Shown here: in pieces, positions 4,645 through 52,748 of the stretch
Numbering within the stretch: the stretch's first letter is position 1
How the letters are laid out: each line of letters begins with the position of its first letter
Origin: an uncultured archaeon
GTDB lineage: Archaea > EX4484-52 > JAADEF01
NCBI GenBank assembly: GCA_964407715.1
Contig: CAYOWP010000002.1
Span: 53,838 to 113,226, forward strand
DNA length: 59,389 nucleotides
Direction of reading: 5' to 3'
Made by a program: the position numbers and the translations under genes
Notes under the pieces: model-generated
The model's database searches: none
The model's input: the letters and a program-made list of their open reading frames with translations, nothing else
What the model was told of the DNA's origin: nothing

Positions 4645-4937
4645 GGGAAGATGCTAAGAAGCGATGCTGCCTTTGGCAGCAGGAAAGTCCCCTCCCCAAT
4701 CACGGCAACCTCTCGCAAGAGAGGGTCCCGAGAGGGACGGCTCTGCCACAGAAAATAACCTCTAAAAAGCAAGCAATGATTTGATTTGAGCAATGCACTT
4801 TTTAGAGGATGAAATGGCATCCTTGCCGGGGCAACCTCACAATAGAGGGCTTAGACGGATGCTTCACATCCATCACCGCTTATATTTTGAAAGCGGGATG
4901 ACGGATGCACAGAAAGGGGCTTATTAGCATCATCCCC
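4645..4937 (+). ncRNA. rnpB: RNase P RNA (archaeal)
   Basis: GC-rich ~290-nt island containing the universally conserved P4 5' strand AGGAAAGTCC and the CR-IV-like ACAGAAAGGGGCTTA near the 3' end. The 5' end GGGGAAGATGCTAA is complementary to the 3' end TTAGCATCATCCCC (P1). Only short, compositionally odd ORFs occur here. Confidence 0.85.
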
Positions 4938-10790: not shown

Positions 10791-11558
10791 TTATAAGAGC
10801 TTTATTTGTCCTGGTCTTGGCTCATAGCAGCTTCCTTCTGATAATAGCTCTACAATAATTTCCTCGAGTATCTCCTCATTATAGGGGAGATCCTTTATTA
10901 TTTGTGTGTACTCTACTCCTTCATCTCCTTGTTGTGCTTTAATATATTCAATTACTTGTGCTTTTATATCTTCCTTTTTTATTTCCTCCTTTTCTTCGCT
11001 TTTCATCACATTTATATATGATTTTTCTATTGCTCCTGTTATCAAAGAGGATTCTATCTCGCTTAAATTATAATTATCAACAATATGCTTCACTGCTTCC
11101 TTTCCATCTAAATTTCTCTCAGAAAGCTCCTTTATTATTTTCTTAAATGTTTCTACTTCCTTCATGAATTCCAATCTATGCAAAATAAAATAATTAAGAT
11201 TCTCTATTTTAACAAAATCCTCATTTATTATGTGAATCTCATCATTATATCTACTTACCCTCCCAAATATTGCTACGCAATCTCCTTCCATAATCTCATT
11301 AATTCTCAGCGCATCCTTAAAGAATTTTACCATCACAATGCCAGTTCCATCATCCACATTTACAAACCCATATTTTCTGTCAGGACTTAAATATGTATTT
11401 GTAACAAATCCAACAACCTTCACTCTCTTAAAAGGAGTTAGATATCTCTTGCTCATTCCCCATAATGTTAAATATTCTCCTTCTTGAAGCTCATAATACT
11501 CTGAATTGAAAAGCACATCAATAACCACAGGTCTATAAGTGGAAGTATATTTTCCCAT
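10791..11558 (-). CDS. OB-fold nucleic-acid-binding protein with an acidic C-terminal helical/wH-like region (RPA-like)
   Basis: N-terminal OB-fold-like block (VKVVGFVTNTY...GIVMVKFF...GDCVAIFGRVSRYNDEIHI) and an acidic C-terminal half. Exact family not resolvable by eye. Confidence 0.4.
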   Translation of the reverse strand: MGKYTSTYRPVVIDVLFNSEYYELQEGEYLTLWGMSKRYLTPFKRVKVVGFVTNTYLSPDRKYGFVNVDDGTGIVMVKFFKDALRINEIMEGDCVAIFGRVSRYNDEIHIINEDFVKIENLNYFILHRLEFMKEVETFKKIIKELSERNLDGKEAVKHIVDNYNLSEIESSLITGAIEKSYINVMKSEEKEEIKKEDIKAQVIEYIKAQQGDEGVEYTQIIKDLPYNEEILEEIIVELLSEGSCYEPRPGQIKLL

Positions 11559-15271: not shown

Positions 15272-16528
15272 TTAAACATAATCAAAAATGTTTCTTTGCT
15301 TTTTTTCATTTTCTTTATTGTTTATTTCTTCTTTATTGATCACGGGAACTCCATACATCCCATCACATCCTGGCTTAATAAAAATTTTTCCTTTTCTATT
15401 TTTAATAATTAACTCCTCTAATTTTTTATCTTCTAATGAAAGATTTGCAAATAATAAAACTTGGTATTCGTTTCCATATTTATTAATGAGATCATTATAT
15501 ACGCTCCATACTTCTTTACTATTAATATTTTTATTATATCTTAAACTTAGTATCTCATGTAGCGGGAGTATCTTATAAAATTTTTGTTGATGTTTTCGAT
15601 TCCTATTGTTTTTGTTGGAGAGATCATATACTCTATGTAACACCCCTAACGTCATCTTTTTTCCGCAATATGGGCAGAGATTATTTAATTTCATAGCCTC
15701 CAATGGATGCATACAGATATTGCACTTTCTATGCCCATCATAATGATATTTCCCATAAGCAGGATCCACCTCTATTGTTTCCAATTTCTTGTTTTTTATT
15801 CTCTCAATGATTTCATCAAATGATAAATCCTTTTCATAAAAGATGTTTGCTTCTCTTCCCAATCTCCATGGCCAATAAGAATGGGCATCAGAATTGGAGA
15901 GAAGAGAGAAAGAGTATGTCTCATCTACTAATGCATTCATATCTGGATCGCTACTTAGTCCTGTTTCAATAGTTGAGATGTATCTTGAATATTTTCCAAA
16001 GCATTCTTTCATACTATCAAATCCTGATTTTGAGCCATAAACCCCAAACCAGGGAGTCCAAGCATGTGCAGGAAAAACAAAGATATCTTTAAAGATGTCT
16101 CTCTCTAAGAGAATTTCCATCATCTCCTCACATGATAGCATAAGCGTTGGCCTTCCATCCTCTTCTAAATTACCATATTTTGAAAAGATTTCATTTAATA
16201 TGTCAACAACATCAAAAGATTTTGCTAAAATCACATTATGGACTTTCCTTATTTTGCCATCCTTTTCAAATACATTGTTAATCTCTGTCTCCAATATATA
16301 TTTCATATCCTCATATTCATAAATTCCATCTCTAATTTCTTTAAGGTTTTCTTTAAGTTCTTTTAACCATAAAGGATGTGTGAAATCTCCAGTACCTAAG
16401 ATAGTAAGCCCTTTAATTTTAGCCCAATAGCTCAATTTCTTAAGAGAGATATCATGAGATGTTGCACGACTATAACGAGAATGTATATGCAAATCCGCTA
16501 TTTCCATCTCAAGTTCATTTGAGGACAT
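15272..16528 (-). CDS. PHP-domain metal-dependent nuclease, endonuclease Q (EndoQ)-like, with zinc ribbon
   Basis: N-terminal PHP signature ADLHIHSRYSRATS, more His/Asp metal ligands, and a zinc ribbon (CNIC...CPYC). This architecture and size match archaeal EndoQ. The assignment is from memory of the family, not a search. Confidence 0.5.
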   Translation of the reverse strand: MSSNELEMEIADLHIHSRYSRATSHDISLKKLSYWAKIKGLTILGTGDFTHPLWLKELKENLKEIRDGIYEYEDMKYILETEINNVFEKDGKIRKVHNVILAKSFDVVDILNEIFSKYGNLEEDGRPTLMLSCEEMMEILLERDIFKDIFVFPAHAWTPWFGVYGSKSGFDSMKECFGKYSRYISTIETGLSSDPDMNALVDETYSFSLLSNSDAHSYWPWRLGREANIFYEKDLSFDEIIERIKNKKLETIEVDPAYGKYHYDGHRKCNICMHPLEAMKLNNLCPYCGKKMTLGVLHRVYDLSNKNNRNRKHQQKFYKILPLHEILSLRYNKNINSKEVWSVYNDLINKYGNEYQVLLFANLSLEDKKLEELIIKNRKGKIFIKPGCDGMYGVPVINKEEINNKENEKKQRNIFDYV

Positions 16529-19249: not shown

Positions 19250-20539
19250 ATGATGCAAATTAAAGATAAAATGGTAAGGCTTTTTGTATTGTTTATTTCT
19301 GCTATGTTTCTAATATCTATCTTTGGAATATCGCAGGTATTTGCAGTCGAGAATGTGGTCAGCGAGATCAATGTGAATAAAGAAATTCAAATATCTCCTG
19401 AGCCAAAAGATGAAAATGCTAAAAGCGAGATAGGAGAAAGAATAAGTGAGAGAGCTAAGAGAATAAAAGAAAAGAGAGAACTTCTTAAAACAGTTTTTAA
19501 AGATTTAACACCTGAGCAAAGAAGAGCATTATTGTTAATGAATAAAGATGAGATATCAAAGATGATTAGAGAAGGAAAAAAGGAGGAGATAAAAAAGAGA
19601 ATTGAGGAGAAAATAAGAGGAAGAATGATGTTAGAGAAAAGAAAATGGAAGAAAAGGATTGTTGATGTGAGGGAGAAAGAAAGAAGAATAAACAAGATTA
19701 AAGCAAGATTAAAGAAGGTTCAGATAAGGATAAAGAAGCACCATGAAATGGAAATGAAACTAAGAATATTAAGAAATAAATACAAGCAATGTTTAGCATC
19801 AAACAATACACTTGAAAATGAATCTTGTGATGAGATAATAAATGAATTTATTGAAAAATCTAAGGCATATCTTATGAATGGTATCAATGTAAGTATTGAG
19901 AATCTTGAGGCTCTTAAGGACAAAGTAGAATCTTCAGAATACTTGAATGAGACACAGATACAGAACATTGTTATAAAGATAGATAATGAAATAGAGATTT
20001 TGAAATCTATTGAAGATGAGATTGCTGCATGCAATGAGATATCTTGTCTAAGAGATGCTGCAGAACGTTTAAAGAGAAATATTATAAGAATAAAATTTTT
20101 GCTCAAATTGCGTATATTTGAAGAAGAGATGGAAAGGATTGGATTGATAAATGAGAGAGCAAATGCAATACTTGCAAGATTAGAATTGCTCATGGAAAGA
20201 GCAGAAAAGATGAATCTATCTCAAGATAAGATAGAGTTGTTGGAAGAGAATGTAAATGAGATCAGAGAGGATATTGATTTAGCATGTGCTAAGAAAGACG
20301 AGGCTCAAGAGAACTTTGAAAAAGCAAAAGAAGCATTCAGGGAAGGAGATATAGAAGCTGGAAAGGCATATTTGGAGATGTCTAAGGATGCGCTTGAAGA
20401 AGCAAGAAGAGCATTAAGAGATGCAAATAGCAAACTCCAAAGAATTTGGAATTATATAAAATTGAGGAAGAAATTGAGAATCTTTTTAGTTGAAAAAACA
20501 GAAGCGTTAGAGGCACAAACACAAATAGAAATAGAATAG
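19250..20539 (+). CDS. secreted, highly charged coiled-coil protein
   Basis: Signal peptide (LFVLFISAMFLISIFGISQVFA) then ~400 aa of K/E/R-rich heptad-like sequence. Confidence 0.5.
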   Translation: MMQIKDKMVRLFVLFISAMFLISIFGISQVFAVENVVSEINVNKEIQISPEPKDENAKSEIGERISERAKRIKEKRELLKTVFKDLTPEQRRALLLMNKDEISKMIREGKKEEIKKRIEEKIRGRMMLEKRKWKKRIVDVREKERRINKIKARLKKVQIRIKKHHEMEMKLRILRNKYKQCLASNNTLENESCDEIINEFIEKSKAYLMNGINVSIENLEALKDKVESSEYLNETQIQNIVIKIDNEIEILKSIEDEIAACNEISCLRDAAERLKRNIIRIKFLLKLRIFEEEMERIGLINERANAILARLELLMERAEKMNLSQDKIELLEENVNEIREDIDLACAKKDEAQENFEKAKEAFREGDIEAGKAYLEMSKDALEEARRALRDANSKLQRIWNYIKLRKKLRIFLVEKTEALEAQTQIEIE

Positions 20540-22266: not shown

Positions 22267-24192
22267 ATGGTTGAAAAAAAGGATTCTAAGACAAGATATA
22301 CTGCTCAAGATATAAAGGTGCTTGAAGGTTTAGAAGCTGTAAGAAAGAGACCTGCAATGTACATAGGGGATACTTCATTTAGAGGATTTCACCATCTCTT
22401 ATGGGAAGTCATTGATAATAGCATAGATGAAGCCTTAGCAGGTTATGCAACAAAGATAGAAGTTATACTTCATAATGATGGTTCAGCAGAGGTTAGAGAT
22501 AATGGTAGGGGAATTCCTGTAGATATTCATCCATCATATAATATCTCTGCCCTTGAATTGGTATTAACAAAACTTCATGCTGGTGGAAAATTTGATACAA
22601 AAGCATATAAGGTTTCTGGAGGTTTGCATGGGGTTGGGATAAGTGTTGTAAATGCTCTTAGCGAGTATTTGGATGTTAAAATAAAAAGAGATGGCAAAAT
22701 ATGGCATATGAGATTTAAAAAAGGAGAAAAAGAGAAGGATTTAGAGATAATTGGAGAAACAAAGGAGATAGGAACTATTATAAGGTTTAAGCCAGATAAA
22801 GATATATTTAAAAATTTGGAGTTTGATTATAAATACATAAAAGGCCGAGCAAAGGAACTTGCATATCTTAATAAAAATCTTCAGATTACATTAGAGGATA
22901 GAAGAACAGGAAAAAAGGAGACTTTTGTATATAATGAAGGAATTGTGCAATATTTGGATGAGTTGGTAAAATATAAACAGAAGGTTATAGAGAGGCCAAT
23001 ATATTTTAGCGAGCGCCAAGAAGGGGCAGAGGTTGAGATAGCTTTTTTATATGTTCTTGAGGATTATAACATAATAAGAGGATATGTAAATAATATTCAT
23101 ACAATTGAAGGAGGCACGCACATAACTGGTTTTCTCCAAGCATTAACAAAGACAATAAAATCTTATATCAATCATCTGAAAATAAAGACAAAATATGAGA
23201 TAGAGGGAGATGATATAAAGGAAGGCTTGGTAGCCATAATTTCTTTAAAACTTCCTCAACCAGAGTTTGAAGGACAAACTAAGACAAAGTTGGGAAGTAG
23301 AGAAGGAAGAACCATAGTTTATAATGCAACATCAAAGCATTTGGAGGAATACTTTGATAGGCATAATGATGATTTGAAAAAGATCATTGAGAGAGTATTG
23401 AAGGCTGCTGAGGCAAGAATAGCAGCAAAAAAGGCAAGGGAACTTGTTAAAAGAAAATCTGCATTAGAATCGTTTGATCTTCCAGGTAAGCTCTCTGATT
23501 GTTCAACAAAAGATAAAGAAAAGGCAGAATTGTTCATTGTTGAGGGAGAGAGCGCAGGTGGTTCTGCAAAATTGGCAAGAGATAGAAATTTTCAAGCAGT
23601 TTTACCTTTAAAGGGTAAAATAATAAATGTAGAGAAAAACACTATGTTAAAAGTACTGAAGAATGAGGAAATAAGGACATTGATTTCAGCAATAGGTACC
23701 GGGATAGGTGAAAACTTTGATATTAATAAACTTCGATATGGAAAGATAATAATAATGACAGATGCTGATGTTGATGGGGCACATATAAGAACTTTAATAT
23801 TAACATTTTTCTATAGATATCTACCAAAGCTAATAGAAGAGGGGAGAGTATATTTGGCATTACCTCCTTTATATAAAATAAAAACATCAAACAACGAGAT
23901 TTATTATGTTTATAGCGATAAGGAAAAGGAGGAGCTAATTAAAAGATTAGAGAAGAGCAATAAAAAGATTTCAGAGGTTCAGAGATATAAGGGTCTTGGA
24001 GAAATGAATCCAGAGCAATTGTGGGAAACCACAATGGATCCAAAAAGAAGGAAACTTAAAAGAGTGGAGATTGAGGATGCCATAGAAGCTGAAAAGATGT
24101 TTACAATATTAATGGGAGAAAAGGTTGAGCCAAGGAAAGAGTTTATCTTAGAAAATGCGCCATTGCTCAAAATAGAAGAATTGGATATTTAA
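22267..24192 (+). CDS. gyrB: DNA gyrase subunit B
   Basis: GHKL ATPase blocks (GLHGVGISVVNALS), Toprim (LFIVEGESAGGSA), C-terminal YKGLGEMNPEQLWETTMDP. No gyrA follows in this window. Confidence 0.9.
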   Translation: MVEKKDSKTRYTAQDIKVLEGLEAVRKRPAMYIGDTSFRGFHHLLWEVIDNSIDEALAGYATKIEVILHNDGSAEVRDNGRGIPVDIHPSYNISALELVLTKLHAGGKFDTKAYKVSGGLHGVGISVVNALSEYLDVKIKRDGKIWHMRFKKGEKEKDLEIIGETKEIGTIIRFKPDKDIFKNLEFDYKYIKGRAKELAYLNKNLQITLEDRRTGKKETFVYNEGIVQYLDELVKYKQKVIERPIYFSERQEGAEVEIAFLYVLEDYNIIRGYVNNIHTIEGGTHITGFLQALTKTIKSYINHLKIKTKYEIEGDDIKEGLVAIISLKLPQPEFEGQTKTKLGSREGRTIVYNATSKHLEEYFDRHNDDLKKIIERVLKAAEARIAAKKARELVKRKSALESFDLPGKLSDCSTKDKEKAELFIVEGESAGGSAKLARDRNFQAVLPLKGKIINVEKNTMLKVLKNEEIRTLISAIGTGIGENFDINKLRYGKIIIMTDADVDGAHIRTLILTFFYRYLPKLIEEGRVYLALPPLYKIKTSNNEIYYVYSDKEKEELIKRLEKSNKKISEVQRYKGLGEMNPEQLWETTMDPKRRKLKRVEIEDAIEAEKMFTILMGEKVEPRKEFILENAPLLKIEELDI

Positions 24193-29502: not shown

Positions 29503-30321
29503 ATGGTCTTAGATATTATTTTTAAACCACAAGATTTGGAGACCCATCCTTTGGAGATGTTCATTTATAGTTTTCTTGTTACATCATTAAGCAGTATCTT
29601 TGCTTTAATCATTTTCAGTGAGCATTCCTCTGTTGTTTTTCCATTTCTTGTTACGTTGGCATTGTTGCCAGCGATGCATAAGATATTGAAGGATCAGGAA
29701 AGGATAGAGGAAAGATTTGAGAATCTCTCGTTTTTTGAAAGATATAAAAAGATATTGGAAATATATACTTTTTTCTTTTTGGGTGTAGTGTTTTCTGTTA
29801 TCTTCACAATGGCTTTTTTGCCAAACAATTTTTGTGAAAAATTATTTTCTGATCAAATCTCAACCATAAATGCCATACGCAACGAGAATATTGAGATTCA
29901 GGGAAAATATTATAGCACATATGAAGACTTCTTAAGCATCTCTTATAATAACATTAAGGTTTTGGTTATTGCATTTCTTCTCAGTTTCTTTTTTGGTAGC
30001 GGTGCTTTGTTTATTTTATCATGGAATGCATCTGTTGTGGGAGTATTCATCTCGCTATATGCAAAGATATTGTCAGATGCATATGATAAGCATATCTTAA
30101 TATCACATATTGAAGCATTTTTGAGCATTTCTTTACATGGCATTCCTGAGGTCTTTGGATATTTTCTTGGTGGAATTGCAGGTGCTGTGCTATCTTTTGG
30201 TCTTGTTGAAGGAGAAAATAGAAAGATTATTTTATGTGATTCTTTTAAGACATTGTTAGTTGCTATTTTCTTTATTTTATTAGGTGCTTTCTTAGAAAGT
30301 TTTATTGTTGCTTCACTATAA
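29503..30321 (+). CDS. integral membrane protein (6 TM; SpoIIM/DUF95-like topology)
   Basis: 272 aa and hydrophobic. Family call is tentative. Confidence 0.35.
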   Translation: MVLDIIFKPQDLETHPLEMFIYSFLVTSLSSIFALIIFSEHSSVVFPFLVTLALLPAMHKILKDQERIEERFENLSFFERYKKILEIYTFFFLGVVFSVIFTMAFLPNNFCEKLFSDQISTINAIRNENIEIQGKYYSTYEDFLSISYNNIKVLVIAFLLSFFFGSGALFILSWNASVVGVFISLYAKILSDAYDKHILISHIEAFLSISLHGIPEVFGYFLGGIAGAVLSFGLVEGENRKIILCDSFKTLLVAIFFILLGAFLESFIVASL

Positions 30322-31299
30322 AATATTGTTTAACACATCCTTTAATATTTCTCGTATTTCATTCATTTCCTTTTTGTTCTCATATGCACATCCTATCACA
30401 GATTCGTGTCCTCCACAAACAAATCCCTTTTCCTTTAATCCCTTAGATATTCCCTTATCAAACAATCTCAATTTTCTATCATATCTAATGCTTATCCTTT
30501 TGCTTTTATAATTTACACATATTGCAATATCAAAACCTAATTGTGTAAGTAGATTTGCTATCTTGCTTTCCTCACTGCCTACAAAGGTATAGGCACACCA
30601 ATAATCCTTTATCTTAAATACCTTTAATCTCTTCAATGCTTTCATCTTTATCTTTTTATCAATATCCTCAAATGATTTATATAAAAATGAGAAGTCTTTC
30701 AAATCTATATTATATTTATTTATTAAAAAAGAGATGATATTAAGATCCTCTTTTGATGCATATCTTAAATATCCAGTATCAGATAATATTCCCGCAATTG
30801 TATATACCGCAATACTCTTATTGATATCAAATAAAAGAGAATATATTTCATATAGCATTCTTGTTAAGGATGAATATCTTTTGATAATATGAAGATCAGC
30901 AATCTCTTCTATCTCGTTCTCTGCATGATGATCAAATAACATAATCTTAATCTTTTTTCTTTTTGATATTTTTTCTCTTATTTTTTTTGGTATTTTATGA
31001 AAATTTGCTGTATCTACAATTAGAAACACCACCTCTTCATTTTTTTCTATTTCAAACTCTGAGGCATCTCTATATAAAAAAGGAAACCTCTCCAACAATT
31101 TTTTTGCTTGAGAATTCATTTTCTCAATTATGATCTCTGATCTAATATTGAATCTCATTAATAAATCCTGAATAATTAACGCGCTACATATTGCATCCAC
31201 ATCTGCATGTTCATGAGGAACTATAAAAAATTTGCTTTTCTTATGCTTCTTTAAAAAATCTTTTAAATTCCTTGTGAAATCAACAATTTCAACATCCAT
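30316..31299 (-). CDS. DHH-family phosphoesterase (NrnA/RecJ-like core)
   Basis: Motifs HEHADVDAICSA (DHH motif I-II region), LIVDTAN, and LFDHH (motif III). 327 aa. Confidence 0.7.
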   Translation of the reverse strand: MDVEIVDFTRNLKDFLKKHKKSKFFIVPHEHADVDAICSALIIQDLLMRFNIRSEIIIEKMNSQAKKLLERFPFLYRDASEFEIEKNEEVVFLIVDTANFHKIPKKIREKISKRKKIKIMLFDHHAENEIEEIADLHIIKRYSSLTRMLYEIYSLLFDINKSIAVYTIAGILSDTGYLRYASKEDLNIISFLINKYNIDLKDFSFLYKSFEDIDKKIKMKALKRLKVFKIKDYWCAYTFVGSEESKIANLLTQLGFDIAICVNYKSKRISIRYDRKLRLFDKGISKGLKEKGFVCGGHESVIGCAYENKKEMNEIREILKDVLNNIL

Positions 31300-31331
31300 A
31301 AATCTTAAGGAGATTTCAATCTTTTAAAAAG

Positions 31332-32777
31332 TTGGAACATATTAAAATTAGAATTATGAACCAGACAGATAGCGAAATACTATATGAGAAATATAAAGAA
31401 AAGATAAAAGAGTATTATTTACAGGATAATTTGCTAAAATATTATCAGCTTTTTGGACAAGACAGGGAGGTGGTTCCTGTAATAAAAGCAAAACATTATG
31501 CTAAAAGACCATCTATGCTATTATATGATACAGATTATAAATTGCATATTCTTGAAGGAGCAACTTCTTTCCATACTTCTGTTGAGAGATGGAAAAATGT
31601 TATGAAACTAAAAGAGATTGGTGAAGATAAGGACAAGATGAATGAGATAAGAAGCGGTTGGGATATTATAATAGATATTGATTCAAAAAGAGGAATAAAT
31701 GATGCAAAAATTGTTGCTAAAACAATTATAGATTTCTTAAGAGATATCTTTGAGATTCATCCTATTTATATTAAATTCTCAGGAAGTAGAGGATTTCATA
31801 TAGGAATAAGCGGCGCTTCTTTACCTCAAAAAATAGATGATGTGCCTATACAATACTTATATCCTGACTTATTACATAAAATATCCATCTATATAAAGGA
31901 AAAGCTTTTGAATACATTTAAGGCTCTTTTAAATTCCAATAATCCTCAAGATATAGTAGAGATAGAAAGCAATTGGTCTTATAGACATCTATTTAGAATG
32001 CCATATTCAATCAATGAGAAAACATATCTAATTAGCGAAGTAATACCTTGTGATGAATTAATGGATTTTGAGCCAGAAAATGCAAGAATAAGGTTCTTAG
32101 ACAAACTTCAACCTTTCTTAGAGAAACCTTCAAAAGGAGATTTAGAGGGTTTATGTTACGAGGCTATAGAATATTATGAAAATAGCGAATATAAAAAAAT
32201 GTTAAAGAACAAAGTAATTGAAAACTTAGAAAAAAGAAAAAAAGGATTCTTTTATGATATAAACTTGGACGAGATATTACAGGAAATCAATACAGCTAAA
32301 GAAGAGCTTATAAGAGAATATGGATCAAAGAGGTTTAATATAAGAGTTGAGGAAGAATTTTTTCCACAAACAATAAAAAACATACTTAAAGGATTGAGTG
32401 ATGGAAGAAAAAGAGGCATATTTATTCTTCTTAATTTCCTTAGAAAGATGAACTGGACCTGGGATGAAATTGAAAAGAAGATAGAGGAATGGAACAATAA
32501 AAATCAGCAACCTTTAAGGGAAAGTTATATAAGAACGCAGATAAGATATTTTAAGAAAAATGAGGAGAAGATAAAGCATATTCCTCCTCCAAATTTTGAG
32601 ACCCAAGGATATTATGATGATATGGGAGTGCTTGATAGGGAAGATTTAAAATTAGGAGTGAAGAACCCTATTACTTATGCATATAAAAAGAAGATGTTGT
32701 ATTTAAAAACAAAGAAAAAACAAAAAAGAAGGGGAAAATATGAGAATATTAATAACAGGAACGCCAGGAACAGGTAA
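31332..32777 (+). CDS. DNA primase, PriS catalytic core fused to a PriL-CTD-like helical domain (Nanoarchaeota-type compact primase)
   Basis: PriS signatures IIIDIDSK (metal-binding DxD) and FSGSRGFHIGI (SGxRGxH). The C-terminal FFPQTIKNILKGLSDGRKRGIFILLNFLRKMNWTWDEI resembles the PriL-CTD FPPCM...GR..FL block, but no cysteines remain for a 4Fe-4S cluster. Confidence 0.6.
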   Translation: MEHIKIRIMNQTDSEILYEKYKEKIKEYYLQDNLLKYYQLFGQDREVVPVIKAKHYAKRPSMLLYDTDYKLHILEGATSFHTSVERWKNVMKLKEIGEDKDKMNEIRSGWDIIIDIDSKRGINDAKIVAKTIIDFLRDIFEIHPIYIKFSGSRGFHIGISGASLPQKIDDVPIQYLYPDLLHKISIYIKEKLLNTFKALLNSNNPQDIVEIESNWSYRHLFRMPYSINEKTYLISEVIPCDELMDFEPENARIRFLDKLQPFLEKPSKGDLEGLCYEAIEYYENSEYKKMLKNKVIENLEKRKKGFFYDINLDEILQEINTAKEELIREYGSKRFNIRVEEEFFPQTIKNILKGLSDGRKRGIFILLNFLRKMNWTWDEIEKKIEEWNNKNQQPLRESYIRTQIRYFKKNEEKIKHIPPPNFETQGYYDDMGVLDREDLKLGVKNPITYAYKKKMLYLKTKKKQKRRGKYENINNRNARNR

Positions 32778-33288
32778 AACTTCAGTAAGTAAAAGATTAA
32801 GTCAACTAATAAAGATGGAGGTTGTTCATCTAAATGATATTATTTTTGAAAAAAATATCTATAAAGAGTATGATAAGGAAAGAGAAAGCTATGTGGTTGA
32901 TTTGGAAAAAATGGAGAGAATATGTAAGGCATATGAAAATGTGATTATTGAGGGACACCTCGCACATTATTGTATGAGAGATGGAGATATAATAATAATC
33001 CTCCGCGCTAATCCTTTAACACTCAAAAAAAGATTAAAAAGAAGAGGATATAATATTAAAAAGATAGAGGAGAATGTTGAAGCAGAGATTGTAGATGCTA
33101 TAACACAAGAGGTCTTAGATTTATCAGAGAGATATGATGTGGAGATATATGAGATAGACACATCTGACAAAAAGATTGATAGAATCGCGATAATAATAAA
33201 GAAGATATTGGAAAACAAAGAATATGGAAGACACTTTTTACCTGGAAATATTGATTATACAGATTATTTACTTGAAGGAAAAATTTAG
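32740..33288 (+). CDS. Fap7/AK6-like P-loop kinase (archaeal adenylate-kinase-like NTPase)
   Basis: MRILITGTPGTGKTS start, 182 aa, typical Fap7/hCINAP-like size and motif. It overlaps the primase 3' end by 38 nt in a different frame. Confidence 0.6.
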   Translation: MRILITGTPGTGKTSVSKRLSQLIKMEVVHLNDIIFEKNIYKEYDKERESYVVDLEKMERICKAYENVIIEGHLAHYCMRDGDIIIILRANPLTLKKRLKRRGYNIKKIEENVEAEIVDAITQEVLDLSERYDVEIYEIDTSDKKIDRIAIIIKKILENKEYGRHFLPGNIDYTDYLLEGKI

Positions 33289-33431: not shown

Positions 33432-34364
33432 ATGATTCTCTCAAGGAGGAAAGGCATATATTTGATGAATAGATATGTTTTTGATGGAAATCCTACAAGG
33501 GAGAGTGATCTCCTATTTGTGTCTCACGCGCATGAGGATCATTTACCAAATAAAAAAAGCAGAGCCTTGGCATCTTCACTTACAATAGATATTGCCAATA
33601 TTAGAAAAAATAGAGCTTTATTAGATGATGGCTTGTCTCTTTGGACTAATGAGAATTTCTCTCTCTATAATGCGGGTCATGTTCCAGGAAGCAAGATGAT
33701 AAAATTAAAGATTGATAATACAACTATCTTATATACTGGAGATTTCTCTCTTCATGAGAATCCCTTAGTAAAATTTGATTTGCCTTCATGTAGGATTGAT
33801 GTTTTGATTATGGATGCCACATATTTTAGTCCATACTATTCTCTACCAGAACCTAAAAGTGTCATTGATGAAATAATAGATTTTATTCATAGAAATTATA
33901 AAAGTTCAATTTATTTCTTTGTTTATCCCTATGGAAAAAGCCAAATATTAGGAAGTTATTTTGATAAATATGGGATAGATTATACATTTTATATAGGATT
34001 TAAAAAATTAAATGAAACCTTAGAAAGACATCTTAATTATAAGTTTAATGGCAAGTATTTATCATTGGAGGATATAAGAAGAAAAAGCCATGGAATTTTT
34101 ATTTTGCCATTAAAGTATAGACATATGATAAGAGGAGGAATTAAAGTTGGTATAAGCGGATGGGGTAAAAATCCATATTATGCAAAGATGCTAAACCTGG
34201 ATAGGGTTTTTCCATATTCTGATCATGCTGATTTTGATGATCTATTATATTTTATTGAGAAAATTAAACCTGACATAGTTTATGGTTTTCAACTTAATGG
34301 AAATAAAGAATTCTTTGAAAAATATCTTCGGGAAGAATATGAAATCTATGCTCAGGCAATTTGA
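33432..34364 (+). CDS. metallo-beta-lactamase-fold hydrolase
   Basis: HxHxDH motif (SHAHEDH) near the N-terminus and downstream His/Asp ligands. The likely start is the internal MNRYVFDG. Confidence 0.55.
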   Translation: MILSRRKGIYLMNRYVFDGNPTRESDLLFVSHAHEDHLPNKKSRALASSLTIDIANIRKNRALLDDGLSLWTNENFSLYNAGHVPGSKMIKLKIDNTTILYTGDFSLHENPLVKFDLPSCRIDVLIMDATYFSPYYSLPEPKSVIDEIIDFIHRNYKSSIYFFVYPYGKSQILGSYFDKYGIDYTFYIGFKKLNETLERHLNYKFNGKYLSLEDIRRKSHGIFILPLKYRHMIRGGIKVGISGWGKNPYYAKMLNLDRVFPYSDHADFDDLLYFIEKIKPDIVYGFQLNGNKEFFEKYLREEYEIYAQAI

Positions 34365-34369
34365 TATGA

Positions 34370-34440
34370 TGCGCCGGCCGGGAATTGAACCCGGGCCACC
34401 GCCGTGGGAGGGCGGGATCATACCACTAGACCACCGGCGC
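34370..34440 (-). tRNA. tRNA-Gly (anticodon CCC)
   Basis: Reverse complement GCGCCGGTGGTCTAGTGGTATGATCCCGCCCTCCCACGGCGGTGGCCCGGGTTCAATTCCCGGCCGGCGC(A): 7-bp acceptor, anticodon loop CTCCCAC (CCC), T-arm CCGGG-TTCAATT-CCCGG. No intron. Confidence 0.85.
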
Positions 34441-34515
34441 ATTTCTTTGATAATATATTATATCTCCACTTTATTTTTAAAAATAATATAAACCAAAACA
34501 ATAATTTTATTTTTT

Positions 34516-35663: not shown

Positions 35664-37028
35664 CTATTTCTCATATCTTTTGATTTTTTCATTTATCTTT
35701 TCTATCATATTTTGTAGAAGTATATCATCACAATATGCTCCTTTAAGGCTTTTTATGCTCTCATATCTCTTCCTATCTAAGACATAAAAGTACTTATCTT
35801 TTAGTCCTAAGTCATTTATAGCAATTTCCAAAGCCCTTAAGCTTTCGCTTTCAGGTTTAAGATATGCAAAAATAATATCATAATCCTTATTATTTAAATA
35901 TTCTTCTATTCTTTTTGCATTAATCTCTATGTATGCTTTTTTAATCTCTTCTGTTTCCTCATACTCGGGCCAGTCATATGCATTAAAAGGATACTTATTC
36001 TCAAACTCCCTTGGTATTACTCCAGGATTTGAGATTATAAGTTGGTGTATCTTGGCATAATATGGGGATCTCACAAGATATGATAATATCTTTCTATGTG
36101 TTTTAGAACTGGAATATGGTTTCTTATATGAACAATGTAAAAATAAGGCATACCTTTTTATAGCGGGTTTTTCATAAAAATATGATATATATTCTTGCCA
36201 GATATTATAATAGGGATGAATCAAATTTGAGATCTTTGCTCCTTTAAGTTCATTTTTTGCTTTTTCTTTATATTCCTTAGGAAAATGAGGGTAAATAACA
36301 TAATCCTTTCCATAAATCTCAACTTTTGGATGGTATTTATATTCTCCAACAATTCTATAGAATTCTTTTAGCGTTATAGGCTTCCATCTTCCTTCTAACC
36401 ACCAATCAAAAAGCTCGGCATATCCAGAATATGCAAAGGTATTCATAATGGCTATGCTATCAGAATATTTTAAAGCAAATTCCATTGTATTTTTAAAATC
36501 ATCTTTGACATCTCTTACTCCTGGTAGGTTAACCATAACATATGTTCTTATTTTAAATCCATACTTTTTTGCTATATTCACTGCCCTTAAGAATATTTCT
36601 TTTGTTATACCTTTATTTATTATCTTGAGCACCTCATTATTTGCGCTCTCCAAACCCAATGCTAGATACACCTCTAACCCTTCTGAGTCTTTTTTTAATT
36701 CTTTCATTTTTTTCTCTGTAACAAAAGGGGGCCAAGTTTCAATTACAACCTTTTTAATATTTCTTTTTTTTAATTCATCAAAGATAAATTTCCTAACCTC
36801 TCTCGGTATCTGATTATCATCTATAAAACTGCCAGAATTATAGATCTTCACTACCTCTATTCCTTCTTTTTCCACATTTTTTATCTTTCTCAGAAATTCC
36901 TCTTTTAATTGTTTTTCTGTTTTGTTATAAAATCTTCGTTTTTTACTTAGAACACAAAAAATGCACTTTCTCCATGCACATTTTCCATTTTCTAGAATAA
37001 TAACTTTGCTTTTTAGCCCTTTTAGCAT
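35664..37028 (-). CDS. radical-SAM-like protein with an atypical CX4CX2C cluster motif and a C-terminal domain of unknown function (tRNA-modification-type enzyme suspected)
   Basis: N-terminal CAWRKCIFC (CX4CX2C rather than canonical CX3CX2C), followed by a TIM-barrel-like radical SAM core (YNSGSFID..., GLESANNEVL). The ~200-aa C-terminal extension has no recognisable motif. Confidence 0.45.
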   Translation of the reverse strand: MLKGLKSKVIILENGKCAWRKCIFCVLSKKRRFYNKTEKQLKEEFLRKIKNVEKEGIEVVKIYNSGSFIDDNQIPREVRKFIFDELKKRNIKKVVIETWPPFVTEKKMKELKKDSEGLEVYLALGLESANNEVLKIINKGITKEIFLRAVNIAKKYGFKIRTYVMVNLPGVRDVKDDFKNTMEFALKYSDSIAIMNTFAYSGYAELFDWWLEGRWKPITLKEFYRIVGEYKYHPKVEIYGKDYVIYPHFPKEYKEKAKNELKGAKISNLIHPYYNIWQEYISYFYEKPAIKRYALFLHCSYKKPYSSSKTHRKILSYLVRSPYYAKIHQLIISNPGVIPREFENKYPFNAYDWPEYEETEEIKKAYIEINAKRIEEYLNNKDYDIIFAYLKPESESLRALEIAINDLGLKDKYFYVLDRKRYESIKSLKGAYCDDILLQNMIEKINEKIKRYEK

Positions 37029-37827: not shown

Positions 37828-39921
37828 ATGTTCAAAAAAATAAGAAAAAGAGATGGAACAATTGTTGATTTCGATGCTGAGAAAATCACAAATGCTATTG
37901 CAAAAGCAGGAGAAGCAACAGGAGAATTTGATAGGCGCATTGCTAAGAGATTAACATTAAAAGTGCTAAATTTAGCACAACAAGTTATTAAAGATGACAT
38001 TCCAAGCGTGGAGGAAATTCAAGATATTGTTGAAGAGGTCTTGTTGAATTCTCCTTATAAAAAGACGGCGAAGGCATATATAATTTATAGAGATGAGCAT
38101 GCTAAAATAAGGGAACTTGTTTCTAAGGCAAATTCAGAATTAGTTGATCAATATCTCAATAATCTTGATTGGCAAGTTAATGAAAATAGCAACATGTCTT
38201 TTTCATTACAAGGGTTAAACAATTATATTTCCTCTGAAATAAGCAAGATTTATTGGTTGAATAGAATTTATCCAAGAGAGATAAGGAGAGCACATATAAA
38301 TGGAGATTTTCATATCCATGATTTAGGTATGCTATCTGTATATTGTGTAGGATGGGATTTGATGGATCTTCTAATAGAAGGTTTTAAAGGAGCATCTGGG
38401 AAGATTGAGAGTAAACCAGCAAAACATTTCCGCAGCGCTCTTGGACAGGTGGTTAATTTCTTTTATACATTGCAAGGAGAAGCAGCGGGAGCTCAAGCAT
38501 TTTCAAATTTTGACACTTTCTTAGCTCCGTTTATAAGATATGATGGCTTATCATATAAAGAAGTAAAGCAGGCAATTCAGGAATTTATTTTTAATGTAAA
38601 TGTCCCTACACGTGTTGGTTTCCAAACACCTTTCACAAACATAACATTAGATCTTGCTCCTCCTAAACATTTAGCAAATCAACAGGTTATAATAGGAGGA
38701 AAATTGCAAGATGAAGTGTATGGAGATTTTCAACACGAAATAGATATGTTTAATCGAGCCTTTCTTGAGGTTATGATGGAAGGGGATGCAAAAGGAAGGA
38801 TATTCACCTTCCCTATCCCTACATATAACATAACAAAGGATTTTGATTGGGACAATCCTAATTTTGATTTACTTTGGAAGGTTACATCAAAGTATGGTAT
38901 TCCATACTTCTCAAATTTCATTAATTCTGATATGGATCCAGCGGATGTGAGATCAATGTGCTGTAGATTAAGATTAGATAATAGAGAGCTTAGAAGAAAG
39001 GGAGGAGGTTTATTTGGGGCAAATCCATTAACTGGGAGTATTGGTGTAGTAACAATAAATATGCCAAGAATAGGATATCTCTCTAAGGATGAAACTGAAT
39101 TTTTAGAGAGATTGGAAGCATTAATGATATTAGCAAAAAACAGTTTAGAGATTAAAAGGAAGGTATTGGAAAAATTTACAGATAAAGGGTTATATCCTTA
39201 CACAAGATATTATTTGAGAAACATTAAACAAAGCCTAGGAGAATACTGGAAAAATCACTTCTCTACAATTGGTTTGGTAGGGATGAACGAGGCATGTCTA
39301 AATCTTTTAGGAGTGACTATAGGGGATAAAGAAGGCAGAAAGTTTGCAATTAAAGTTTTAGATTTTATGAGAGAAAAGCTTATTGAGTTTCAAGAGGAGA
39401 CAGGGAATAATTATAATTTGGAAGCAACACCAGCTGAAAGTACAAGTTATAGATTGGCAATGATTGATAAAAGAAAATATCCTGATATTATATGCGCAAA
39501 TGAGGAAGGGTATAGAAAAGGTGCTGAACCATTTTACACAAATTCTACGCAATTACCAGTGAATTTTACTGATGATATTTTTGAGGCATTGGATTTACAA
39601 GATGAATTGCAGATAAGGTATACAGGAGGCACAGTATTCCATATCTATATAGGAGAAAAGATAGATAACCCGAATATAATAAAATTATTAGTAAAGAAAA
39701 TATGTGAAAACTATCGATTGCCATATTTTACAATAACACCTACATTTAGCATATGTCCATTTCATGGATATATTGCTGGAGAACATCATCTCTGCCCTGT
39801 TTGTGGCTCAGAATGCGAGGTATATTCCCGTATAGTGGGCTATTTCAGACCCGTAAAGCAATGGAATAAAGGTAAAAGAGAAGAATTTAAGATGAGAAGT
39901 AGTTTTAAGGTGAGTGTGTGA
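37828..39921 (+). CDS. nrdD: anaerobic ribonucleoside-triphosphate reductase (class III)
   Basis: N-terminal ATP-cone (MFKKIRKRDGTIVDFDAEKITNAI), large barrel domain, C-terminal Zn ribbon CPVCG and glycyl-radical motif (RIVGYF). Start placed at the internal Met preceding the ATP-cone. Confidence 0.85.
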   Translation: MFKKIRKRDGTIVDFDAEKITNAIAKAGEATGEFDRRIAKRLTLKVLNLAQQVIKDDIPSVEEIQDIVEEVLLNSPYKKTAKAYIIYRDEHAKIRELVSKANSELVDQYLNNLDWQVNENSNMSFSLQGLNNYISSEISKIYWLNRIYPREIRRAHINGDFHIHDLGMLSVYCVGWDLMDLLIEGFKGASGKIESKPAKHFRSALGQVVNFFYTLQGEAAGAQAFSNFDTFLAPFIRYDGLSYKEVKQAIQEFIFNVNVPTRVGFQTPFTNITLDLAPPKHLANQQVIIGGKLQDEVYGDFQHEIDMFNRAFLEVMMEGDAKGRIFTFPIPTYNITKDFDWDNPNFDLLWKVTSKYGIPYFSNFINSDMDPADVRSMCCRLRLDNRELRRKGGGLFGANPLTGSIGVVTINMPRIGYLSKDETEFLERLEALMILAKNSLEIKRKVLEKFTDKGLYPYTRYYLRNIKQSLGEYWKNHFSTIGLVGMNEACLNLLGVTIGDKEGRKFAIKVLDFMREKLIEFQEETGNNYNLEATPAESTSYRLAMIDKRKYPDIICANEEGYRKGAEPFYTNSTQLPVNFTDDIFEALDLQDELQIRYTGGTVFHIYIGEKIDNPNIIKLLVKKICENYRLPYFTITPTFSICPFHGYIAGEHHLCPVCGSECEVYSRIVGYFRPVKQWNKGKREEFKMRSSFKVSV

Positions 39922-40607
39922 GAATTGGAGGACTTCAAAAGGTTTCTTTTATTGATTATCCTGGTAAGATTAGTGCTATTATTTTTACACAAGGATGTAA
40001 TTTTAGATGTCCTTATTGTCATAATCCAGAATTGGTTGATTCATCTTTATTTGATGAGCCTTTGGATATAGAAGAAATCTTCTCTTTTTTAAAATCAAGA
40101 AAGGGAAAAATAGATGGAGTAGTAATCACAGGAGGAGAGCCAACAATACAACCTGATCTCAAGGAATTTATAAAGGAAATAAAGCAAATGGGATTCTTCG
40201 TGAAATTAGATACCAATGGAACAAATCCAGATGTTGTCCGTGAGTTATTAAGAGATAGAATGATAGATTATATTGCAATGGATATAAAAGCGCCTTTAGA
40301 AAAATACAAAGATGTTGTTAGAGTTAATCTTAACATTGATGATATAAAAGAAAGCATCTCTTTAATTATGTCTTCCTCTATTGATTATGAATTTAGAACA
40401 ACTATATGCAAAAAACTACTTGATAAAGATGATATCATCAGAATTGCAAAGCAGATTAAAGGAGCTAAACTTTATGTTTTACAAAAATTTGTAAAATCTA
40501 AGACATTAGATCCTTTTTTTGATGATGAAATTCCTTATTCTGATGAGGAATTATTAGAACTAAAAAAAGAGATTGAGAGATATGTTAACAAGTGTGCTAT
40601 TCGTTGA
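39918..40607 (+). CDS. nrdG: anaerobic RNR activating enzyme (radical SAM)
   Basis: CNFRCPYCHN (CX3CX2C) near the N-terminus. Overlaps nrdD by 4 nt. Confidence 0.8.
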   Translation: MRIGGLQKVSFIDYPGKISAIIFTQGCNFRCPYCHNPELVDSSLFDEPLDIEEIFSFLKSRKGKIDGVVITGGEPTIQPDLKEFIKEIKQMGFFVKLDTNGTNPDVVRELLRDRMIDYIAMDIKAPLEKYKDVVRVNLNIDDIKESISLIMSSSIDYEFRTTICKKLLDKDDIIRIAKQIKGAKLYVLQKFVKSKTLDPFFDDEIPYSDEELLELKKEIERYVNKCAIR

Positions 40608-44956: not shown

Positions 44957-45634
44957 ATGGTTGAGAAGATACCTACAGGGATTCCTGGTCTGGATGAATT
45001 GCTATATGGAGGAATACCAAAAGGTAGCGTAGTCTTGGTTTCTGGAGTGGCGGGATCAGGTAAAACTACTTTTCTATCTCAATTCTGTTGGTATGGGCTT
45101 GTAAGAGGAGAAAGATGTCTTTTCATAACCTTAGAAGAGATGCCGGAAGAGATAAAAGATGACATGTTACAATATGGATGGGATTTCAAAAGATACGAGT
45201 CAGAAGGAACATTTAGAATTGAATATTTTGATCCATTTGAGTTAAGTGATATGAGCCACAGATTAAATGATCTCATTGAAGTTAATAAGTTTGATAGGGT
45301 TGTAATAGATTCTTTATCTTTATTAGGAATGTATATAAAAGATGAGTTTGAAATAAGAAAAAAACTCTTTAAAATAATTCAGAATATAAAGAAATCAGGA
45401 GCAACTGCTTTACTTTCTGGTGAAATTCCTGAACATGAACCAAACAAGCTATCAAGATATGGTGTAGAGGAATTTGTTGTTGATGGAGTAATCGTGCTAT
45501 ATTATCATAGGATGAGTGATGGCAATTTTGGGAATATAGAGATTAGAAAGATGAGAAGGACAAAACATGCTCACGGAACATTTCCAACTTTTATAACCAA
45601 CAAAGGATACGAGGTGAGTACAGAAAAAATATAA
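44957..45634 (+). CDS. single-domain KaiC/RecA-superfamily ATPase (ArlH/FlaH-like)
   Basis: GIPGLDELLYGGIPKGSVVLVSGVAGSGKTTF (KaiC-type Walker A context), Walker B VVIDSLS. 225 aa. Confidence 0.65.
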   Translation: MVEKIPTGIPGLDELLYGGIPKGSVVLVSGVAGSGKTTFLSQFCWYGLVRGERCLFITLEEMPEEIKDDMLQYGWDFKRYESEGTFRIEYFDPFELSDMSHRLNDLIEVNKFDRVVIDSLSLLGMYIKDEFEIRKKLFKIIQNIKKSGATALLSGEIPEHEPNKLSRYGVEEFVVDGVIVLYYHRMSDGNFGNIEIRKMRRTKHAHGTFPTFITNKGYEVSTEKI

Positions 45635-48644: not shown

Positions 48645-49676
48645 ATGGGAGTAAATATAAGAGAGCTTGTGGATGATTGTAGAGAAGAGATTTCCTATGA
48701 GATGCTTAGCGGCAAGACAATAGCATTAGATGCATTTAATATTCTCTATCAGTTTTTGGCAGCAATAAGACAGCCTGATGGTACACCTCTTATGGATTCT
48801 AAAGGCAATATAACCTCTCATCTCTCTGGGATTTTTTATAGGAGCATATCCTTGATGGAATATAATATAAAATTGGTGTATGTTTTTGATGGAGAAAAGC
48901 CAAGTTTTAAGGAAGAGGAGATAAAAAAGAGATTACAGGCAAAGGAAGAGGCTGAGGAGAAATGGAGAAGAAGCATAGAGGAAGGTAACTTAGAGGAGGC
49001 AAAAAAATATGCTCAGGGAGCATCATATCTTACACCTCAAATGGTAGAGGAGGCAAAGAGACTGATAAAAGCTATGGGTATGTGCTATGTGGATGCTCCA
49101 TCAGAGGGAGAAGCACAAGCAGCATATTTAGCAAAGATTAATAAAGTATATGCCGCAGGATCTCAGGATTATGATTCATTGCTTTTTGGCTCTCCAATTT
49201 TGATAAGGAATCTTGGTGTTACTGGTAAAAGGAAGATTCCTGGAACGAATCAATATAAAGAGATAAATTTGGAGAGGATTTTTCTTGAGAAGATATTGGA
49301 AGAGTACAAACTTACACAGGATCAATTGATATGTTTAGGTATCTTGGTTGGTACAGATTATGCAGAGAACGGAGTAGAGGGTATAGGAGTAAAGAAGGCA
49401 TTAGAGATAGTAAGAATATACAAAACACCAGATAAAATATTTTCTGCCATAAAGGATAAGTGGGAACATGATGTTGATTTTATGAAAATATATGAGTTTT
49501 TTAAAGAGCCTCCCGTAAGAGATGTGGAGATATCTTTTGATAGATTGAATGAAGAAGAAATATATAAGATCCTTGTAGATGAGCACGATTTTTCTCAAGA
49601 AAGGGTCTCTAATGCTATAGAGAGATTAAAAAAAGCAAAGAGTAAAACATCCCAAAGGACACTTTTTAGTTTCTGA
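48645..49676 (+). CDS. fen: flap endonuclease 1
   Basis: N-domain MGVNIRELV..., I-domain acidic residues, H3TH motif (GIGVKKALEIV), C-terminal PIP-like tail. Confidence 0.9.
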   Translation: MGVNIRELVDDCREEISYEMLSGKTIALDAFNILYQFLAAIRQPDGTPLMDSKGNITSHLSGIFYRSISLMEYNIKLVYVFDGEKPSFKEEEIKKRLQAKEEAEEKWRRSIEEGNLEEAKKYAQGASYLTPQMVEEAKRLIKAMGMCYVDAPSEGEAQAAYLAKINKVYAAGSQDYDSLLFGSPILIRNLGVTGKRKIPGTNQYKEINLERIFLEKILEEYKLTQDQLICLGILVGTDYAENGVEGIGVKKALEIVRIYKTPDKIFSAIKDKWEHDVDFMKIYEFFKEPPVRDVEISFDRLNEEEIYKILVDEHDFSQERVSNAIERLKKAKSKTSQRTLFSF

Positions 49677-51755: not shown

Positions 51756-52748
51756 TCACTCTGTGCTTGCCAATATTGTCAATGTACCTGTTGGCACATT
51801 TCCGTCAGGTACTCCATAAGGTACATGCAATTCTACATCTGCAATTAAACTATCTCCTGGATATATGGTATTGCCATTATTCAAAGTTAATCCTACCTGA
51901 CTACCACCAAATGCAGTACATGAACTTGCTCCTGGTGCATCTGCATTCCATCTAAAGATTCTTATTTTTGAACAGTCATAGTATACGGCAACACAATATG
52001 TAGTACCTCCTATTTCTATACCATTTATAAGACCCCAATCTGAATCTCCTGTAGCGCCAATATTTGCCCATTTAACATTTCCATCAATCAAATCAATTGT
52101 ACCTGTGTTTGTAGTGTTGTGAGGCTCCACTCCTATCACAATATCTGCATCTGTGCCTGTGGAACCATTACAATATGGTTCTGGATCTGTTGAAGTTGTT
52201 GCATTTATCACCCAGAAATATTCATGGTTAGCATCTCTTATTTTTCCAAAACTTACCCAATTGTCTGGTTTCTGGAGATATATGTAATCTGTGCTTGAAT
52301 TGAATTCTACTCTATCAACAAAACTCATGTTTGCACCTGTGTAATCTGTTGGCTTTAACAATAACCAGTTTCCTGAATCATAATTTTGTAAGTTACCTGT
52401 TCCGAACGGATTACTTGAAGGTTGTGATACATTTGCCCATACATATGTTATATCCGTAGAACCCATATTTTCTATCTGTATTTGGCTTAGTGTTACCCCA
52501 TCTTCAGTATCTGTATATTGCGTTAACACAGTTCCAGGATCCGCATTACCCCAATCCATTCCTGCAGGAGTAACATCTATTATTGTTTTATTGTTTACTG
52601 TTACTGTAACCTGAGAGCTATCTGTTGCATCTGCCGTATACGCGTTTGCAATACCATCAAAATCTAAAAATAATCCAGCAATTAAAGCACCTAAAATCGT
52701 CAACACAAAAGCCATTTTACTCATGCTCTTTAATTCTACCCTTTTCAT
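51756..52748 (-). CDS. secreted surface protein, paralogue 1 of a pair
   Basis: Signal peptide (MAFVLTILGALIAGLFL), beta-rich, T/N/G-rich. Shares colinear blocks with 53018-54016 (ITYVWANVSQPSSNPF / ITKIWLNNSYPSSRPF; RIFRWNAD / RIFFVRWNAD; GTLTILAS / GTLTVYAS; TYCVAV / TYCVFI). Confidence 0.5.
   Translation of the reverse strand: MKRVELKSMSKMAFVLTILGALIAGLFLDFDGIANAYTADATDSSQVTVTVNNKTIIDVTPAGMDWGNADPGTVLTQYTDTEDGVTLSQIQIENMGSTDITYVWANVSQPSSNPFGTGNLQNYDSGNWLLLKPTDYTGANMSFVDRVEFNSSTDYIYLQKPDNWVSFGKIRDANHEYFWVINATTSTDPEPYCNGSTGTDADIVIGVEPHNTTNTGTIDLIDGNVKWANIGATGDSDWGLINGIEIGGTTYCVAVYYDCSKIRIFRWNADAPGASSCTAFGGSQVGLTLNNGNTIYPGDSLIADVELHVPYGVPDGNVPTGTLTILASTE

Follow-up and report, generated by a model that had tools for sequence, protein, structure and literature searches.

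Primases in which PriS and PriL are fused into a single chain were first noted in Nanoarchaeum equitans (PMC3914693), and the fusion is now regarded as a synapomorphy that unites DPANN cluster 2 with Undinarchaeota ('Nanostetteria') (PMC7414124; bioRxiv 10.64898/2026.06.17.729505), in which the fused enzyme is described as the only primase (PMC10250227, PMC7414124). No other archaeo-eukaryotic primase (AEP) domain has been reported in N. equitans, and the NEQ395-type enzyme is treated as the replicative primase of these lineages; mutation of D87/D89 abolishes the activity of NEQ395, mutation of R301, R303 or F306 abolishes priming while elongation is kept, and each Cys-to-Ala mutant loses the [4Fe-4S] cluster while primase activity is kept or raised (PMC10250227). 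The C-terminal part of these enzymes is called the 'Fe-S cluster-binding' or 'metal binding' domain in the literature (PMC3914693), and the work on NEQ395 stresses the iron-sulfur (Fe-S) cluster (PMC10250227). In general, the role of [4Fe-4S] in the archaeo-eukaryotic primase is disputed between a redox switch based on DNA charge transport and a purely structural element (PMC10250227, PMC5700102). In Sulfolobus, the primase without the PriL Fe-S domain is fully active via PriX, which holds the first nucleotide by its triphosphate through residues D70 and 72-RKR-74. Here, we analysed a fused primase gene in a stretch of 59,389 nucleotides from an uncultured archaeon (contig CAYOWP010000002.1, positions 53,838 to 113,226; the whole stretch is called the window below), in whose product all four cluster ligands are replaced.

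The gene most likely occupies positions 31356..32777 on the + strand and encodes 473 aa plus stop (residues are counted from the ATG at 31356; numbers marked ORF refer to the longer open reading frame and are higher by 8). It is confirmed as a full-length member of the monomeric PriS-PriL (C-terminal domain, CTD) primase family of NEQ395 type, which is found in DPANN cluster 2 and Undinarchaeota, as the original prediction had supposed in comparing it with Nanoarchaeum-type fusions (PMC10250227, PMC7414124, PMC3914693). A search of 5.8 billion proteins returned 590 homologues at E <=1e-3; the best 120 of them are mostly 400-500 aa long and align to 85-98% of the query with identities of 30-64% (E 1e-63 to 1e-182), and many homologues carry precomputed PF01896 (PriS) and PF04104 (PriL) domains together. 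Most homologues have no source name, and the named ones come from Aenigmarchaeota, Nanohaloarchaeota, Nanoarchaeota/Nanoarchaeia, Micrarchaeota or DPANN archaea, to which related genomic loci add Woesearchaeota, Pacearchaeota and Undinarchaeota. The nearest source-named relative (P0074/L054), a partial sequence deposited as Candidatus Nanohal(o)archaeota, is 47% identical, and the best match among GTDB representatives reaches 38% identity. The family hidden Markov model matches the window primase with 471 bits over profile positions 3-422.

The catalytic signatures IIDIDSK and FSGSRGFHIGI, as well as the C-terminal stretch FFPQTIKNILKGLSDGRKRGIFILLNFLRKMNWTWDEI, are present in the ORF translation exactly as they had been quoted, and the PriS catalytic core read from them is borne out by PF01896 (DNA_primase_S), which is matched above its cut-off at ORF residues 114-160 (30.7 bits versus 26.8, E 5e-7). 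As for the PriL part, NF002589 (NCBIfam PriL) gives a weak match at ORF residues 290-449 (E 1e-3), far below its curated cut-off (18.8 versus 339 bits), and PF04104 was not reported for the window primase in a Pfam scan even at E up to 10. Single-sequence phmmer against the PDB likewise gave a chance match only, and family profiles were needed; a profile of 112 family members finds both human PriS (E 1e-7) and Pyrococcus abyssi PriL (9f26_B, E 3e-7). N. equitans or close kin as the source of the DNA was considered and rejected, because NEQ395 is not among the 120 best homologues and the window carries an archaeal RNase P RNA (4646-4935, +; Rfam RF00373, 154 bits), which N. equitans is reported to lack; identity above 64% was seen for the window's own protein only.

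From its N-terminus, the protein consists of a PriS-type AEP catalytic domain (residues 12-258; 31389..32129, +), a helical linker of 68 residues (259-326; 32130..32333, +), a PriL-CTD-like helical domain without cysteines (327-445; 32334..32690, +) and a poorly conserved Lys/Arg-rich tail (32691..32774, +); homologues likewise end in basic tails. The catalytic domain is supported by PF01896, the family profile, Foldseek and an AlphaFold2 model with a predicted local distance difference test (pLDDT) score above 95 in this region. It contains the metal-binding D-I-D motif with D107/D109 (31674..31682, +), which occupy invariant columns in 112 homologues and are equivalent to D87/D89 of NEQ395, and the KFSGSRGFH motif (31773..31799, +), in which K140, G143 and H148, the conserved histidine of the sxH motif, are invariant. 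The full-length model has a mean pLDDT of 91 and is of low confidence in linker residues 298-326 only, where the helices fall to pLDDT 51-62; its Foldseek matches comprise LigD polymerase (Prim-Pol) domains as well as Prim-PolC and PriS structures, the latter two at E 6e-8 to 1e-6. The linker, whose length and sequence vary across homologues, replaces the PriL N-terminal domain (NTD), so that the window primase is without the PriL domain that docks onto a separate PriS. In all these respects the protein is like NEQ395, which likewise joins three parts in one polypeptide: a PriS domain with DxD and sxH motifs at the N-terminus, a linker of helices that substitutes for the PriL-NTD, and a compact PriL-CTD. 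Compared to the canonical PriL (P. abyssi 9f26_B; yeast/human p58C), it lacks the PriL-NTD, the separate subunit and the ligand cysteines. In several homologues (P0034, P0053, P0070, P0093, P0106, P0061 and P0063), an extra C2H2-like zinc-finger motif, for example 'YVCRLCNRAFKTLRGLKMHQIRYH', follows the PriL-like domain at the C-terminus; the window primase has only its basic tail at this position.

The protein differs from most of its family at the cluster site. Four alignment columns are Cys in 115, 114, 102 and 114 of 120 family sequences, and the window primase has T339, F414, L426 and K432 in these columns (ORF T347, F422, L434 and K440). The similarity of the C-terminus to the 'FPPC' region of PriL, which had been noticed by eye, is now supported by a CTD-only profile that matches P. 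abyssi PriL 9f26_B at E 5.6e-6; the stretches 'lFPPCVKNALKGV' and 'FPPNCD..LCTPDKHCKYVRNPLTY' pair the four Cys columns with those of P. abyssi, and the family columns therefore represent the canonical PriL ligands. On the basis of the family alignments and this match, T339 (32370..32372, +) takes the position of the first ligand (FPPC to FPQT), F414 (32595..32597, +) that of the second (PPNC to PPNF), L426 (32631..32633, +) that of the third and K432 (32649..32651, +) that of the fourth, whereas NEQ395 coordinates its [4Fe-4S] cluster through C289, C364, C376 and C384. The loss of the Fe-S cysteines, already suspected, is thus complete. The window primase as a whole is not cysteine-free: cysteines occur at ORF residues 240 and 275, and the final 206 residues, including the whole CTD, contain none. 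Judged from these substitutions, the protein would hold no cluster at all. Non-Cys ligation of Fe-S clusters by His, Asp or Ser exists in other proteins, and on this precedent the CTD could still bind a metal centre or an Fe-S cluster through non-Cys ligands or through ligands of a partner protein. The residues found at the four positions (T, F, L and K), the lone His of the CTD, which lies away from them, and the replacements in 58 Cys-less homologues (described below), whose second and third positions suggest hydrophobic filling rather than metal ligation, make this highly improbable.

Apart from the cluster site, the C-terminal domain is well preserved. Of the 39 CTD columns with a conservation of 80% or more across the family, the window primase keeps 32, and the seven that changed are the four cysteines and the adjacent P338Q, P428R and D429E. 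None of the family-invariant residues has changed: the catalytic domain has D107, D109 and H148, and the CTD has G350, K352 and R353. The latter belong to the stretch D349-G-R351-K-R353-G-I-F356 (32400..32423, +), in which D349, R351 and F356 reach a conservation of 90% or more across the family. Counted from ligand 1, the two Arg lie at +12/+14, the Phe at +17, ligand 2 at +75 and ligand 3 at +87, which corresponds exactly to C289, R301, R303, F306, C364 and C376 of NEQ395. By analogy with NEQ395, D349-G-R351-K-R353 and F356 form a putative site for the triphosphate of the initiating nucleoside triphosphate (NTP) and for the primer 5' end, and the family D-G-R-K-R may be the same device as D70/72-RKR-74 of PriX. 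The orthologue P0002, which is likewise Cys-less, is 64% identical to the window primase; by domain, the identity is 63% in PriS, 50% in the linker and 81% in the CTD, with nonsynonymous divergence (dN) of 0.31, 0.36 and 0.13, respectively (dN is given per domain in place of dN/dS, since the comparison of the window with L083 shows saturation at synonymous sites, pS >0.75). The CTD therefore combines the highest identity with the lowest dN, and the cluster-free domain is under the strongest constraint in the protein.

Based on these results, we interpret the gene, with a probability of roughly 80%, as encoding the single-chain chromosomal replicative primase of a DPANN archaeon, of NEQ395 type, which has given up its [4Fe-4S] cluster. 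Primase activity has probably been retained, as in the NEQ395 mutants, and the enzyme may be the sole replicative primase of its host. In the mechanism that we propose, the PriS domain would form the phosphodiester bonds through D107/D109 and H148, and the flexible helical linker would tether it to the PriL-CTD-like domain. The latter would present the initiating NTP and later hold the primer 5' end via D349-G-R351-K-R353 and F356, which would allow dinucleotide formation; this step is modelled on the NEQ395 mutagenesis and the PriX structures. Side-chain packing would fill the former cluster cavity as a structural core, and priming would then proceed without an Fe-S cofactor and without any need for Fe-S delivery.

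Several observations weigh against this interpretation. The scan for PriL, PriX and AEP proteins covers 59 kb of the genome, and a partner subunit could lie elsewhere. The AlphaFold2 model of residues 320-455 alone is confident (pLDDT 92.8) and shows the PriL-CTD fold, with the PriL Fe-S domain as closest structural match of the CTD and the cluster-free PriX next, but the alignment behind it consists mostly of Cys-containing homologues, so the high pLDDT is no proof that the Cys-less domain folds alone. Foldseek ranks PriX and yeast p58C at the top for this model, but non-significantly (E ~1); the structure prediction that had been proposed as a check thus gave a confident model and the expected best hits, with no significant similarity. 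The proposed profile search was also answered in part, as it recovered P. abyssi PriL, while the CTD profile search against the PDB gave no match to PriX at the sequence level. Finally, the window still encodes Fe-S enzymes, and the loss of the ligands is not accounted for by absent Fe-S biogenesis.

The limited scan bears most directly on the possibility that the CTD is a decaying remnant and that initiation is aided by a protein encoded elsewhere, such as a stand-alone PriL, a PriX-like helix bundle or DnaG. PriX of Sulfolobus, a separate cluster-free subunit, can indeed assume the role of the PriL-CTD. A remnant would hardly be the most conserved segment relative to P0002, and the substitutions in the window primase are confined to the cluster site while the family-invariant residues, including DGRKR together with F356, are kept; in addition, no other AEP domain is reported for N. 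equitans, and the fused enzyme is treated as the replicative primase of these lineages (PMC10250227). Within the window, the six frames contain no further PriS- or PriL-like ORF, in agreement with the earlier remark that no separate priL gene is adjacent. We therefore regard the remnant explanation as improbable. The window primase differs from PriX of Sulfolobus solfataricus (4wyh, 5of3_C), which is a third subunit beside a cluster-bearing PriL, whereas the window CTD is fused to PriS and derived from a Cys-bearing fused ancestor.

Loss of the cysteines is not confined to this protein. When 1.84 billion cluster representatives were searched exhaustively with the CTD (HMMER), no more than 391 relatives came up, and about 45 of the best 150 are without the cysteines. 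After pooling and deduplication, 337 distinct complete CTDs were obtained, of which 260 are cluster-competent, 19 partial and 58 without any of the four Cys; this sample is biased to relatives of the query, and the counts are not population frequencies. In the 58 Cys-less CTDs, the first ligand position is filled by T, A, S, P or V, the second by Y/F/W in 57 of them and the third mostly by Y/L/I, and [DE]G[RK]KR is kept in every one. Among 80 GTDB loci, all 15 of the classical Nanohaloarchaea type (L008, which is the complete genome CP046106.1, and L009-L011, L013, L014, L016, L018-L020, L024, L026-L028 and L052) have TYYE or SYYE at the ligand positions. Nanoanaerosalina, Asbonarchaeum and QJJ-5 (L015, L023 and L025) have PFIL or PFLL, and one Nanoarchaeota metagenome-assembled genome (L082) has SYIM. 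From these sequences, Cys loss is clade-wide in the Nanohaloarchaea-type loci sampled and is not peculiar to the window lineage.

In neighbour-joining trees of the PriS domain, the window primase and its orthologues P0002/P0121 are sister to P0003/P0004/P0122/P0124, which keep all Cys, and this group lies apart from the Nanohaloarchaeota-type Cys-less clade. Because the sister sequences retain the cysteines, the loss in the window lineage appears to have occurred independently and rather recently. These trees are approximate, and the 17 parsimony changes between Cys-less and other states are an upper-range guess that is not to be taken literally; the only claim about the number of losses that is reasonably supported is that the window clade is independent of the Nanohaloarchaeota-type clade. 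A broader reading, to which we lean with some reserve, is that fused DPANN primases have lost the cluster repeatedly and by convergence, with a stereotyped replacement (small residue, aromatic, hydrophobic, variable) and an invariant initiation motif, and that these enzymes are sole and fully functional replicative primases. It would take in the window lineage, the whole Nanohaloarchaeota-type clade and scattered lineages of Nanoarchaeota, Woesearchaeota and Pacearchaeota type. Other states of the cluster site also occur in the family. In an Aenigmarchaeota-type subgroup (P0018, P0024-P0026, P0031, P0038 and P0045), four Cys are present with the third one shifted ('GLKQYCEECLKLGIKNP' versus 'GVCxPDxxC'), which implies a rearranged ligand geometry as far as the alignment can tell, and P0021 and P0022 have three Cys only.

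These findings bear on the dispute over the cluster. Prior evidence against an essential cluster came from engineered proteins, that is, the NEQ395 Cys-to-Ala mutants and a PriX-PriL chimera, and PriX itself occurs alongside a PriL that bears the cluster. Single-chain primases found in nature that lack every ligand while the initiation motif is strongly constrained would be a different kind of evidence, which, taken together with the NEQ395 analogy, suggests that the cluster may be dispensable for priming. If such enzymes are the sole primases in their genomes, the cluster is not needed for replication in vivo, and if the convergent losses are real as well, they would amount to evolutionary in-vivo proof that its role is that of an exchangeable structural part instead of an obligatory redox switch. 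The surprise is tempered, because the NEQ395 mutant and PriX work had foreshadowed the biochemical plausibility. No mention of natural Cys-less fused DPANN primases was found in the open-access literature searched, and an earlier description is possible; the gene is otherwise an ordinary member of a known family, with a recurrent and moderately interesting cluster-free regulatory domain that is apparently undescribed. The fusion itself adds little: the suggestion that it is informative about the lineage holds in so far as the fusion is known to mark DPANN cluster 2/Undinarchaeota, which is a very large clade, and it says little beyond that. From a practical point of view, Cys-less primases are small, oxygen-insensitive, monomeric models for biochemistry, and the window primase or P0002 (Cys-less) can be paired with P0003 or P0004 (Cys-bearing) at about 50-58% identity.

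The gene itself was also considered with regard to its limits and reliability. The mechanical ORF, the only one listed there, spans 31332..32777 (+) and would give 481 aa from a TTG start. The ATG at 31356 is more likely the true start, because it is where the public gene call P0001 (473 aa, 100% identical to the window primase) starts and where the N-termini of orthologues align. A sequence resembling a TATA box, TTTTAAAAAG (31322..31331, +), directly precedes the TTG in the 56-bp divergent intergenic region and is a putative promoter that may give a near-leaderless primase transcript. The G+C content of the window is about 31%. Since the window comes from a metagenome assembly, a sequencing, assembly or frameshift error behind the Cys-free reading was weighed. 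The identical 473-aa protein is found on two independently assembled contigs (ENA ERZ27248328, 110 kb, and Logan SRR7051321), which excludes an assembly artefact; the orthologues P0002 and P0121 from other samples carry the same four substitutions T/F/L/K, and the frame is open throughout, with ungapped alignment around the ligand sites. The likelihood of an artefact of any of these kinds is close to nil.

The primase gene lies in a conserved setting. Its 3' end overlaps by 38 nt an AAA_18 (Fap7/adenylate-kinase-like) gene (32740..33288, +; Pfam AAA_18 E 4e-27), and on the other side, a DHH-family phosphoesterase gene (30316..31299, -; Pfam DHH E 8e-12) is divergently oriented. The DHH-primase-AAA_18 arrangement is kept in the closest relative L083 (3363-6306; the DHH side in L083/L084), and the overlapping primase/AAA_18 pair occurs in both L083 and L085 (6992-8864); across the window and these loci, the overlaps are 38-56 nt. 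The primase and the Fap7-type kinase gene are thus probably co-transcribed, to judge from this layout; Fap7 is a ribosome-maturation factor. The further neighbours are housekeeping and replication genes, including tRNA synthetases, SRP54, RtcB, gyrase B, FEN1 and NrdD/NrdG.

This setting is relevant to the idea that the protein descends from a mobile element and acts as a secondary primase-polymerase, serving repair, translesion synthesis or replication of the element. Fused PriS-PriL enzymes are in fact found on plasmids; PolpTN2 of Thermococcus nautilus plasmid pTN2 has PriS-like and PriL-like domains in one polypeptide, and a 2026 preprint derives the whole monomeric primase family from a mobile-element primase (bioRxiv 10.64898/2026.06.17.729505). 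PolpTN2 differs from the window primase in being plasmid-encoded and much larger and in keeping the four Fe-S Cys; it is brown when purified, and its sequence reportedly shows no relationship to the fused DPANN primases (PMC3914693). The same preprint concludes that the family has evolved vertically as the cellular primase (bioRxiv 10.64898/2026.06.17.729505). The housekeeping neighbours, the gene order shared with relatives, the lack of integrase or mobile-element genes among the annotated ORFs of the window and of any other primase in it all speak for a chromosomal replicative enzyme, and a mobile-element role is very improbable.

With respect to Fe-S metabolism, the window contains a radical-SAM/DUF5591 gene (35664-37028, -) with the intact Cys motif CAWRKCIFC and the anaerobic ribonucleotide reductase gene NrdD (37828-39921, +), which is followed by its activase NrdG (39918-40607, +) with intact CNFRCPYC. 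This gene content points to a probable anaerobe in which Fe-S clusters are still made. A general loss of Fe-S metabolism was considered as the cause of the ligand loss and rejected, as NrdG and the radical-SAM gene with their intact motifs lie 3-8 kb away, and an aerobic lifestyle as the cause is not supported, as the anaerobic reductase system is encoded in the window.

Other genes of the window include those for an Orc1/Cdc6-like AAA+ protein with a winged helix (714-1685, +), an RPA-like OB-fold protein with an RPA_C domain (10791-11558, -), DNA gyrase B (22267-24192, +), a KaiC/RadB-like ATPase (44957-45634, +) and FEN1 (XPG_N/XPG_I; 48645-49676, +), as well as tRNA-Gln (50-121), tRNA-Ser (2791-2876) and tRNA-Gly (34368-34441, minus strand). 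Sizeable ORFs (290-430 aa) without a Pfam match at E up to 1e-3 are located at 6671-7546 (-), 8017-9033 (-), 15272-16528 (-), 19250-20539 (+), 33432-34364 (+) and 51756-52748 (-). The ORF at 33432-34364 contains an HxHxDH-like motif, 'SHAHEDH', which suggests a metallo-beta-lactamase fold.

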